DNA of 64,000 nt, taken from the IMG/VR virus record IMGVR_UViG_2687453424_000001. One strand, 5' to 3'. The notes beneath the pieces were generated by a model. It was not told the origin of the DNA, made no database searches, and saw only the letters and a list, made by a program, of their open reading frames with translations. Origin of the DNA: a virus. Its lineage: Duplodnaviria; Heunggongvirae; Uroviricota; Caudoviricetes. Below are positions 25,784-27,899 of the stretch, one piece after another. Position numbers and translations under genes: made by a program. Every line of letters begins with the position of its first letter. The stretch's first letter is position 1.

Positions 25784-25811
25784 CGAACGTGAGGCAAAGA
25801 AAACCCGGCGC
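25784..25811 (-). terminator. Rho-independent terminator ending the cI–kinase operon (lambda t-imm equivalent)
   Basis: Minus-strand hairpin cccggcc…gccggg followed by ttttcttt, directly after the last ORF of the cassette. Confidence 0.5.
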
Positions 25812-25976
25812 TGAGGCCGGGCTAGATTTTAAAGTATTTATCTTTTAGAGATGTAGATGTAAAACTTTTCGCCTTTGAAAATTTTTTGTCATCAGAAGGG
25901 CTTATGAACTCATCTTTTTTGTAGGGAACCGCTAATGCTGCATCACGTCTGCGAGGCAGCTTGCTTACTTCCTCGC
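25812..25976 (-). CDS. Small basic hypothetical protein (54 aa) downstream of stk
   Basis: Not in the supplied track (<60 aa). MKKREEVSKLPRRRDAALAVPYKKDEFISPSDDKKFSKAKSFTSTSLKDKYFKI; AAGGA 9 nt upstream; start 12 nt after the stk stop. Confidence 0.35.
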
Positions 25977-25988
25977 GCTTTTTCATGA

Positions 25989-27035
25989 TCAGTTATCCTT
26001 TAATAACCTATACAGTTTTGTAGGGGTACATCCTGAGGATATTGTTAAGTTCGTAGCACGCCTTTTCCGCCCATCATCGTATAAACGAAAACCAGTAGTA
26101 GACGAATTTTCTGCGTCAAAAACTATAGACAGTATAGCGTCCCCAGACTTTTTTTGCCATTCGCATGTGCCGTTAGTTGGTTTCGTCATCTGTAGACGCC
26201 AGTCAAGAACGCCATCACTTATAGCTGAGAGATCGTTTAGTACATCTAGTACGGATTGATATCTTTCATTTGGATCTACATGAATGCATTTGTTCACTAT
26301 TGTTATTAATTTTTTATGTATATGGGGAGGATACTCTTTTAATGGATAGCAGCCATTAATTATCGACTCTCTGAGTTGTTCAATCGTGCTAAATGCAGAT
26401 CTTTCTCTTTCAAAATTATCATGTCCAACACACATTCTATATATGGTTAATCCTGCCTGATATATGTCATATGTGAAATTATAATCATTTGTTGATAAAG
26501 AAAAATATTCCGGTGGCACATGAAAATGATATCCAAACTCAGGCGCAGCTCTCGATTCCTCATTGACTAACTGAGATAATCCAAAGTCAGATAGCATGGC
26601 CTCATTTCTGTTTGATATCATAATGTTATTAGGTTTTATATCAAAATGCATAAGACCTTTTGAGTGTATATGATAAAGTCCACTTAAAAATTGAATGGAA
26701 TACCGTATTATCTCCCTGCTTGTAAGATTATTTTTTTTCATTAATTGGTTTAGCGAACCATTATGATAAAATGGCATGGCTATATAGATATTGCTCTCAC
26801 ATTGAGCAGCATACTGAACTTGCACAATATTTGGATGTGCATGTTTATAGAGAAGCCTTGCTTCATTAAAGTAGTCGTCGTGGTTAGTGTTTTCTTTTTT
26901 TTCTATTTCTTTAATCACCAAGTCATGAGCTAGGTGTCTGTCATGAGCCAGATATACTTTTGAAAAACAACCCTGTTCTTCTAGATCACTAATCCATTCG
27001 AATTCTACATCAGCTCTTTTGTATGGAGTTAGCAT
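25989..27035 (-). CDS. stk: Eukaryotic-like Ser/Thr protein kinase (933W Stk-type)
   Basis: 348 aa with Hanks-kinase motifs: …GCFSKVY… (Gly loop), VIKEI (beta3 Lys), HFDIKPNNIM (catalytic loop), SDFGLS (DFG), PPEYF (APE-like). Low-GC island between cI and N. Confidence 0.9.
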   Translation of the reverse strand: MLTPYKRADVEFEWISDLEEQGCFSKVYLAHDRHLAHDLVIKEIEKKENTNHDDYFNEARLLYKHAHPNIVQVQYAAQCESNIYIAMPFYHNGSLNQLMKKNNLTSREIIRYSIQFLSGLYHIHSKGLMHFDIKPNNIMISNRNEAMLSDFGLSQLVNEESRAAPEFGYHFHVPPEYFSLSTNDYNFTYDIYQAGLTIYRMCVGHDNFERERSAFSTIEQLRESIINGCYPLKEYPPHIHKKLITIVNKCIHVDPNERYQSVLDVLNDLSAISDGVLDWRLQMTKPTNGTCEWQKKSGDAILSIVFDAENSSTTGFRLYDDGRKRRATNLTISSGCTPTKLYRLLKDN

Positions 27036-27490
27036 CCCCTTACCTCCGCAGATAGTGCAGCCAAAACAGCTTCATTTGTTTCAGTTGTAAAACCAGAATT
27101 ATCGATTCCATTTATATTGCGGTGTGACTTCAATATTTCTTTATACTCGATCTCTGTTAGGTTCAATGATGATTTCATGCCAGATTTTCTAATAGTGTAA
27201 TATTTTCTTACATCACTGCTTGAAAATGCTTCTTGAATAACAGCTTCTATATAAAGGCGGTCAATGCTAAGATTATCAGAGTTTGATTCAGTAACGCGTA
27301 TGGCAGCTAATTCAACATTATATAAATTAAGAATGTCGAGGATGTTATTTCTCACATACTTTAATTTTTCTGGTGTGTCTAAGGTCGAAGGTATTTTAAT
27401 AACATCAACACATTTGAGTGCAGACTCATTAGTGCAATATACAACAAAAGATGTAACTTTGGGCGCCGCTCTAACACCTAGTATTCTCAT
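27029..27490 (-). CDS. Hypothetical protein, translationally coupled upstream partner of stk
   Basis: 153-aa ORF whose stop overlaps the stk start by 7 nt; low GC like stk. Confidence 0.5.
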   Translation of the reverse strand: MRILGVRAAPKVTSFVVYCTNESALKCVDVIKIPSTLDTPEKLKYVRNNILDILNLYNVELAAIRVTESNSDNLSIDRLYIEAVIQEAFSSSDVRKYYTIRKSGMKSSLNLTEIEYKEILKSHRNINGIDNSGFTTETNEAVLAALSAEVRGC

Positions 27491-27557
27491 TTTTTATATC
27501 CTATTTTAGAATCAGGCCGCATCTCTGCGACCATCCATCATCCAAACGTCTCTTCAC

Positions 27558-27899
27558 TCATCCGAAGAAGCAGCAATCCGGGTTAGCACGCACAAGCTCA
27601 AGCGCATCAGTCAGCGAAAGTTCAGTACTGTACTGATGCCATTTCATATCCTTCCGCATCCAATAGATTTTCCATCTATCCAGAGAACGTATGTACTTGA
27701 TTCTTGCTGATGGCAGGATGTTTGTTTCACCTGGATTGCCCTGCCACACGGGGCGCTGTTCGCCGATATCTATCGTTTGGTCATTGATGCTATAAACAAT
27801 ATCCAGTTCATTGCGGATATGTTCAGGCGGCCTTATGCTTTCAATGAATTGGTGAACTTCTTTTTTTACTGCTTGATATTCAAGGTCATTGAACGCCAT
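27558..27899 (-). CDS. Hypothetical protein (first gene after cI, rexA position)
   Basis: 113-aa ORF between cI and the kinase cassette; no recognised motif. Confidence 0.5.
   Translation of the reverse strand: MAFNDLEYQAVKKEVHQFIESIRPPEHIRNELDIVYSINDQTIDIGEQRPVWQGNPGETNILPSARIKYIRSLDRWKIYWMRKDMKWHQYSTELSLTDALELVRANPDCCFFG

Follow-up and report, generated by a model that had tools for sequence, protein, structure and literature searches.

Which of the genes carried behind the repressor of a Shiga-toxin phage work together with its protein kinase Stk? This question is raised by the accessory region of the pRM operon in IMG/VR virus record IMGVR_UViG_2687453424_000001 (Caudoviricetes), a stretch of 64,000 nucleotides (nt) that is referred to as a whole as the window. 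Four open reading frames (ORFs) for proteins of 113, 153, 348, and 54 amino acids (aa) are located there between cI and N, and an original prediction from the letters alone had taken them for a four-gene abortive-infection module. In our analysis the region probably comprises two units, a DUF3024 gene (113 aa) and a self-contained trio of stk (348 aa) with two partner genes, whose products would work as a complex. Obligate partners of the kinase were thus obtained for two of the three small genes, whereas the four-gene composition was lost. The exclusion role of Stk is already published and is no discovery of this study. The partner structure of Stk (RuvC-fold protein, kinase, and micro-protein) and its spread across phyla do appear to be new; the literature and databases searched contained no description of a defence trio of a RuvC-like protein and a kinase, and PADLOC, NCBIfam, and Pfam held no models for the two partners, the RuvC-like and the small basic protein.

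The region is the already sequenced immunity region of the Shiga-toxin phage 933W. Positions 25600–28000 of the window are 100% identical to positions 9715–12115 of NC_000924 across 2401 nt, and the same identity was found for phi24B, Stx2 phage I, and further Shiga-toxin (Stx) phages. The gene order in 933W is cI, L0084, L0083, stk, L0081, and tM, and in the 933W and phi24B records the genes appear as L0084/p24 (DUF3024), L0083/p23 ("RuvC-like"), stk/p22, and L0081/p21, followed by tM. The features are as follows:

27960..28667, minus strand: cI repressor, first gene of the pRM operon, with HTH_3 and Peptidase_S24 domains; identical to 933W cI
27913..27927, minus strand: linker repeat copy 1, TGAAGAGACGTTTGG, just upstream of the DUF3024 ribosome-binding site
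27558..27899, minus strand: DUF3024 gene, 113 aa (933W L0084 / ST933Wp24), assigned by PF11225
27542..27556, minus strand: linker repeat copy 2, directly past the DUF3024 stop codon; probable left recombination joint of the cargo slot
27512..27541, minus strand: nine-codon remnant MMDGRRDAA-stop, corresponding to the 5′ end of a 162-aa gene of other phages
27029..27490, minus strand: gene for the predicted RuvC-fold protein, 153 aa (933W L0083 / ST933Wp23), first gene of the cassette, assigned by structure model
25989..27035, minus strand: stk, Hanks-type kinase, 348 aa, second gene of the cassette, assigned by Pfam Pkinase; 100% identical to 933W stk
25822..25986, minus strand: gene for the 54-aa basic protein (933W L0081 / ST933Wp21), third gene of the cassette, assigned by phrog_4063
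25802..25823, minus strand: intrinsic terminator tM/tRM (hairpin; also in the 933W and phi24B annotations), where the cassette and the pRM operon end on the right
25796..27551, minus strand: horizontally exchanged unit of RuvC-like gene, stk, 54-aa gene, and terminator, delimited by nucleotide comparison
24950–25333: N, on the far flank of the four-ORF block, from the ORF listing

According to the ORF listing, all four ORFs between cI and N are co-oriented, as had been predicted, and are located on the minus strand. The G+C contents of the RuvC-like gene (0.348), stk (0.354), and the 54-aa gene (0.376) agree with the description of a low-GC block; it does not apply to the 113-aa gene (0.444), whose composition is that of cI (0.452). 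In the window, the RuvC-like gene, the kinase gene, and the small ORF follow each other in this order and abut or overlap. The proposed 7-nt overlap of the 153-aa ORF with the start of stk was found (ATGCTAA), with a strong Shine-Dalgarno sequence, GGAGGTAAGGGG, just upstream, and the 54-aa ORF begins 2 nt past the stk stop codon and has the Shine-Dalgarno sequence AAGGA.

The linkage of the trio was followed through other genomes. Homologues of the 153-aa protein formed 75 clusters with 42–93% identity, and in Klebsiella, in Proteus, and in a metagenomic contig beside Wadjet genes, a Pkinase gene directly follows the homologue. A scan with one genome per species comprised 36 loci from Gamma-, Beta-, and Alphaproteobacteria, Bacteroidota, Clostridia, and Acidobacteria. 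Among the loci found from the RuvC-like side, a Stk homologue (35–57% identity) was located directly downstream in 43 out of 43, and in nearly all of them its start codon and the RuvC-like stop codon were −8 to +10 nt apart, the exception being a locus with an N-terminally truncated kinase (L022). In the reverse scan of viral contigs from the kinase side, the RuvC-like gene was present upstream in 78 of 80 loci; of the two others, one lay at a contig edge and one had a kinase with a truncated N-terminus. Such truncated kinases, in decayed copies of the cassette, were seen in the viral contig L087 and in Pseudoalteromonas (L022).

An ORF of 40–80 aa whose start lies between −15 and +30 nt relative to the kinase stop codon was present in 62 of 66 non-redundant loci, compared to 27% in a crude control, and was most often joined to the kinase gene by a 4-nt ATGA overlap. 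The 54-aa protein itself matches phrog_4063. In the alignment of the small proteins, an N-terminal MK.. start, a single invariant Arg in [ST]R context, and an aromatic/basic tail were recognizable; the conservation is mainly positional. The proposed tight linkage of the small partners to the kinase was therefore obtained for the 153-aa protein and, with respect to position, for the 54-aa protein, but not for the 113-aa protein: the suggested co-occurrence analysis with stk, which was carried out here, recovered the RuvC-like gene and the small ORF, whereas DUF3024 was missing in 42 of the 43 loci found via the RuvC-like side.

Nucleotide comparison delimited the exchanged segment to 27551–25796. 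Locus L074, which lacks DUF3024, matches exactly 25796–27551 with 96.9% identity, its homology beginning at 27551, and L005 and L152 have other cargo in place of precisely this segment. The cassette was found in 225 of 5426 complete E. coli genomes (~4%), mostly of Shiga-toxin strains, and DUF3024 in 227. Phage repressors were direct neighbours of the cassette in 5 of 32 loci. Other neighbours were Wadjet JetC/JetD, type I and type IIG restriction-modification genes, Old, AriAB-like proteins, and integrases, and the remaining loci had phage structural or ordinary housekeeping neighbours. The genes next to the cassette outside prophages fit a mobile defence module. A decayed cassette with an IS3 insertion was observed in E. 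coli UTAK-2 (NZ_CP157162, 788457–791438).

The 348-aa protein matched the Pfam Pkinase model above the cutoff (E value 2.2e-46) and carries the motifs HFDIKPNN, DFG, and PPE. In an alignment of 24 kinases of the family, G22, K42, E58, H130, D132, K134, N137, D150-F151-G152, P175-E176, D190, and R258 are invariant. Stk possesses the Gly-rich loop, the VAIK Lys, the alpha-C Glu, the catalytic loop, the DFG and APE-like motifs, and the subdomain XI Arg of Hanks-type kinases, and its initial assignment to this group by HFDIKPNN, DFG, and APE-like motifs proved correct. From their sequences, all 24 kinases are predicted to be active. The kinase domain (residues ~20–260) is followed by a C-terminal domain specific to the family, ~75 aa long, in which W279 and W293 are invariant. 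The catalytic loop D-x-K-x-x-N is a Ser/Thr-type signature, whereas the literature names Stk a tyrosine kinase.

For the 153-aa protein, a structure model of high confidence (pLDDT 91, pTM 0.86) predicts an RNase-H-like RuvC fold with dimerisation helices, and the structural matches of the model include TEFM, Cas12k, Tex, and Spt6. The Pfam RuvC model PF02075 gave 14.2 bits, below its cutoff of 22.2, the NCBIfam RuvC model gave 12.5 compared to a cutoff of 163, and a profile of the RuvC-like family retrieved only noise from the sequences in the PDB. Since hhalign against E. coli RuvC was also weak (E value 0.058), the RuvC assignment rests on the fold. The family comprises 448 representatives among 1.84 billion proteins, all stand-alone proteins of about 150–165 aa. 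Where RuvC has ILGID, the family has ILG(V/I)R, i.e., an Arg replaces the first catalytic Asp. Among 122 representatives with pairwise identities of ≤50%, R7 is present in 121, R47, R78, E82, and E87 in all 122, R/K65 likewise in 122, E68 in 120, and E/D140 in 121. The acidic catalytic tetrad of RuvC (D7, E66, D138, and D141 in E. coli) is not preserved in this family: R7 aligns with D7 both in hhalign and in the Pfam register, R/K65 is located at or beside the E66 position, and only E68 and E140 are candidate equivalents of the tetrad acids. Because an Arg takes the place of the first catalytic Asp, the protein is predicted not to be a canonical resolvase. It is more likely a RuvC-derived binder or sensor, with a rewired yet strongly selected site, than a canonical resolvase.

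The 113-aa protein matched the DUF3024 model PF11225 (E value 1.2e-30; 106.5 bits, cutoff 24.9) and, over positions 1–113 of 115, the PADLOC candidate PDC-S43 (4.4e-41). Its structure model (pLDDT 90) has an alpha-beta5-alpha sandwich, for which comparison with the PDB yielded no strong or informative structural relative. Besides its absence from most of the loci mentioned above, DUF3024 is also missing where the cassette proteins are 97–99% identical and the repressor is a different one (L074–L080, L084, and L086). Conversely, 80 viral contigs were found via DUF3024, of which 31 carry the full Stk cassette and one ends after the RuvC-like gene; the remaining contigs contain at least ten other cargos, including Sakai orf22, a pair of 162- and 206-aa genes, ParA-like ATPases, and a NYN protein. 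In L005, the same cI and DUF3024 are followed by the gene for a NYN-domain protein instead of the cassette, Salmonella phages ST160 and SE1 have c2, DUF3024, and a ParA-like ATPase, VT2-Sakai has a decayed DUF3024 and orf22, and in L152-type Stx phages the 162-aa gene follows DUF3024 together with the 206-aa gene, neither having a Pfam match. In Proteus phages, one type of DUF3024 precedes six or more different genes. In total, the CI-type repressors that DUF3024 was seen to follow are of at least eight kinds. The gene is a repressor-linked anchor and a unit separate from the kinase cassette; its absence in 42 of 43 loci, the variable cargos, the G+C content, and the linker repeat speak against its inclusion in the kinase module. 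The system is therefore tripartite rather than four-gene, and the position of DUF3024 beside a slot for defence cargo could by itself explain its defence association in PDC-S43.

The alternative slot cargos are candidates for defence genes expressed in lysogens. The cargo of L005 is a 285-aa NYN-domain protein (1733–2590, minus strand), the ParA-like ATPases have 351–357 aa (L004, 1801–2874, minus strand), and L198–L206 carry uncharacterised proteins of 250–375 aa, some of them resembling kinases or ATPases on visual inspection. In VT2-Sakai (L003, ~2400–2890), the DUF3024 homologue has 82% nucleotide identity and no intact ORF; the annotation of this phage divides cI into a main ORF and a fragment, and both genes hence look decayed or mis-annotated.

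A 15-nt direct repeat, TGAAGAGACGTTTGG, flanks the DUF3024 gene; two copies occur in the window compared to 0.02 expected by chance. A degenerate version was found at every joint, i.e., between cI and DUF3024, between DUF3024 and the cargo, and between cI and the cargo (L003, L005, L074, L085, L152, and L193). In VT2-Sakai the motif is the 3′ end of cI itself, and the sequence of copy 1 resembles what is left of the 3′ terminus of a different cI allele (..WPEETFG-stop). Directly past copy 2, a MMDGRRDAA-stop remnant is present, and the homology of L152 with the window reaches position 27519. The repeat is probably a recombination linker for the shuffling of cassettes.

The block had been described as occupying the place of rexAB, between cI and the terminator before pL, and as ending in a terminator. 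A G+C-rich hairpin followed by a T-run is present on the minus strand at 25823→25802, overlapping the stop codon of the 54-aa ORF. No other minus-strand terminator match was obtained in the operon downstream of the cI start, and hence none internally. Since the terminator region (window ~25749–25824) has its homologue in lambda where rexB ends (92% identity), the rex position is correct as well. A promoter scan showed no enrichment over shuffled sequences, and internal promoters are hence not claimed.

The assumed expression from the repressor promoter in lysogens is supported by published data, because stk and cI are co-transcribed from pRM according to papers citing the primary work (PMC3564112, PMC3430580), the transcripts of p23 and p24 are lysogen-restricted and exceed cI transcript levels (Riley et al., 2012, PMC3342100), and p22–p25 shift together in RNA-seq (PMC10789677). 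In phi24B lysogens, p23 and p24 were also reported by two-dimensional polyacrylamide gel electrophoresis with MASCOT scores that were not marked as significant (Riley et al., 2012, PMC3342100). Between its Tables 2 and 3, that paper (PMC3342100) exchanges the labels P2 and P3 for 933W p23 and p24, which makes it ambiguous which of the transcripts is 10-fold and which 10^5-fold above cI.

A role in phage exclusion had been proposed for the block, and this part stands, as Stk excludes HK97 according to the cited literature, but is not new: the primary work is cited for a kinase that is nearly inactive until HK97 infects the cell, upon which it is switched on and brings about exclusion or abortive infection (PMC3681748). 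A further exclusion phenotype is described in another study, in which plating of lambda on a 933W lysogen was ~10^6-fold lower for reasons other than cI immunity. Hybrids of lambda carrying imm21, imm434, or immP22 escaped this exclusion, which thus depends on the lambda immunity region (PMC6989128).

We infer a joint action of the three proteins because of their translational coupling and strict co-inheritance, and the following model would account for the data. The DUF3024 gene would stand behind CI-type repressors of many immunity types and delimit, on the upstream side, a slot for exchangeable cargo; here, a horizontally mobile three-gene cassette with its own terminator would fill this slot. 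Stk and the products of the two genes translationally coupled to it would act as one complex. In this complex, the RuvC-fold protein may sense infection or regulate the kinase, with branched DNA, recombination DNA, or a phage protein as its ligand, and thereby license Stk, and the small basic protein could be an inhibitor, adaptor, or pseudo-substrate that holds Stk silent before infection. Once activated, Stk would halt growth and phage production by mass phosphorylation of host proteins. HK97 gp41 is, by gene numbering, an Erf-like annealing protein; if it is the trigger of Stk, as it reportedly is, this would fit a junction-binding sensor. We treat this as a lead and not as a result.

Several points weigh against this model and have to be considered together with the competing explanations. 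Experiments on the partner proteins were not found in the literature searched. Friedman and coworkers reportedly observed in 2011 that plasmid-borne stk alone excluded HK97; if so, the partners would be modulators and not essential, at least upon overexpression of Stk. Cross-phylum homology of the small protein was weak in hidden Markov model tests, with best E values of 1.7e-4 and 2.6e-3. Stk might be the entire system, with the small genes being a safety or addiction device in the manner of toxin-antitoxin systems, or mere passengers, and playing no part in phage sensing. Single-gene kinase defences such as Stk2 and, from E. coli, PD-T4-6 (PMC9519451) provide a precedent, and an antitoxin-like partner could explain the near-inactivity of Stk in uninfected cells. 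Passengers, however, would not retain gene order and overlaps over at least five phyla at 29–45% identity, the strictly conserved Arg/Glu set of the RuvC-like protein speaks for strong selection, and the antitoxin idea is compatible with a sensor-kinase-inhibitor complex rather than a replacement for it. We therefore consider a system of Stk alone quite unlikely.

The roles could also be reversed, with the RuvC-like protein as an active nuclease effector that cuts branched DNA of phage or host and the kinase as its sensor or regulator. Nuclease effectors are common in defence systems, and the invariant acidic residues E68, E82, E87, and E140 could make up an alternative active site. The mapping of R7 onto the catalytic Asp is derived from sequence alignment (hhalign with an E value of 0.058, the sub-threshold Pfam match, and ILG(I/V)(D→R)) and not from a three-dimensional superposition. 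On the other hand, the first metal-binding Asp is an invariant Arg, R/K65 is located at or beside the Glu66 position, and the other RuvC/YqgF-fold proteins among the structural matches, TEFM, Cas12k, Tex, and Spt6, bind nucleic acids and are not known to be catalytic. The kinase activity of Stk is also said to have been shown to be required for exclusion. The accounts cited credit exclusion to Stk, activated on HK97 infection (PMC3681748), and a nuclease effector is judged to be unlikely. A single abortive-infection system made up of all four genes, and hence also of DUF3024, is very improbable. This possibility is favoured by the single operon between cI and tM, the co-ordinated RNA-seq changes, and the match of DUF3024 to PDC-S43, and a divergent DUF3024 (37–40% identity) upstream of the cassette in the Proteus phages L013, L096–L099, L105, and L108 may indicate a loose functional tie between the two units. 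It is opposed by the absence of DUF3024 in 42 of the 43 loci retrieved via the RuvC-like protein and beside cassettes with 97–99% identical proteins, by the full cassette in just 31 of 80 DUF3024 loci (plus one cut contig), by a G+C content unlike that of the cassette, and by the linker repeat flanking DUF3024.

If the kinase trio works as proposed, the two strictly co-inherited partners of this textbook abortive-infection kinase, one of them with the fold of a Holliday-junction resolvase, would be candidates for the brake that keeps Stk silent and for the sensor of HK97. Its occurrence in E. coli and in distant phyla may reflect a general defence family that current tools miss. In a wider version, which is possible though doubtful, the trio would represent an unnamed tripartite anti-phage family in at least five phyla, in which a rewired resolvase fold senses phage recombination or replication intermediates, or a recombinase, and unleashes a promiscuous kinase, and DUF3024 with a linker of 15–20 nt would mark a hitherto unrecognised hotspot for defence cargo directly after CI in lambdoid and P22-like prophages. 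The DUF3024-linker architecture provides a handle for mining lysogeny-expressed defence genes beside prophage repressors.

Further observations concern the surroundings of the region. Despite the identical immunity region, the replication module of the window is unlike that of 933W (O/P). It contains a gene for a 258-aa HTH_36 initiator-like protein (29574–30350, plus strand) upstream of one for a 968-aa Toprim primase/DnaB-like (AAA_25) helicase (30461–33367, plus strand), which is split by an intein with a Hint domain (~aa 379–424) and a LAGLIDADG domain (~aa 579–634). A 156-aa ORF (933W p19; 24421–24891, minus strand) between N and ea10/ssb has the same size as HK97 Gp45. It lies in a second AT-rich patch (G+C content 0.34–0.37), has no Pfam match, and may be another moron. 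An Rfam scan of 24800–29200 detected no RNA family.

Among known systems, the exclusion of HK97 by 933W Stk, credited by citing papers to Tyler and Friedman (2004) and Friedman and coworkers (2011), is the closest, as it involves the same gene (100% identity) in the same operon position, expressed from pRM, silent until HK97 arrives, and leading to abortive infection. As cited, it is a system of the kinase alone, and the obligate RuvC-like and micro-protein partners and the wide phyletic spread are absent from the literature searched. The staphylococcal kinase Stk2, reportedly described by Depardieu in 2016 as a single-gene Hanks-kinase defence, also uses a eukaryotic-like kinase as abortive-infection effector. 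The same applies to the single-gene system PD-T4-6 of E. coli (Vassallo, 2022, PMC9519451); unlike the trio, both are single genes and have no RuvC-like or micro-protein partner. The PADLOC models for PD-T4-6 match the kinase domain of Stk (1e-37, residues ~20–275) and leave its C-terminal domain uncovered. Membership in PD-T4-6 or MADS mad6 was rejected, as the matches are confined to the kinase domain, NCBIfam MAD6 reached 122 bits compared to 460, and the architecture is a different one. Lambda RexA/RexB share with the cassette the slot between cI and the terminator before pL, co-transcription with the repressor, the exclusion role, and a homologous terminator, but the proteins are unrelated; homology to RexAB was rejected, as no Rex family occurred among the Pfam, PHROGs, NCBIfam, and PADLOC matches. 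The KKP kinase-kinase-phosphatase module of Pf prophages (PMC11341870) is likewise a prophage phosphorylation module within a lysogeny circuit that defends against other phages; it differs by its two kinases and phosphatase, the absence of a RuvC-fold protein, and the phage type, which is filamentous. The RuvC resolvase shares just 13–15% identity with the 153-aa protein, which has an invariant Arg at the first catalytic Asp and, unlike the resolvase, is never found with ruvAB and always with the kinase. The 113-aa protein, finally, matches PDC-S43 from end to end, but PDC-S43 is a computational single-gene candidate, whereas DUF3024 is here a conserved anchor beside a variable cargo slot.

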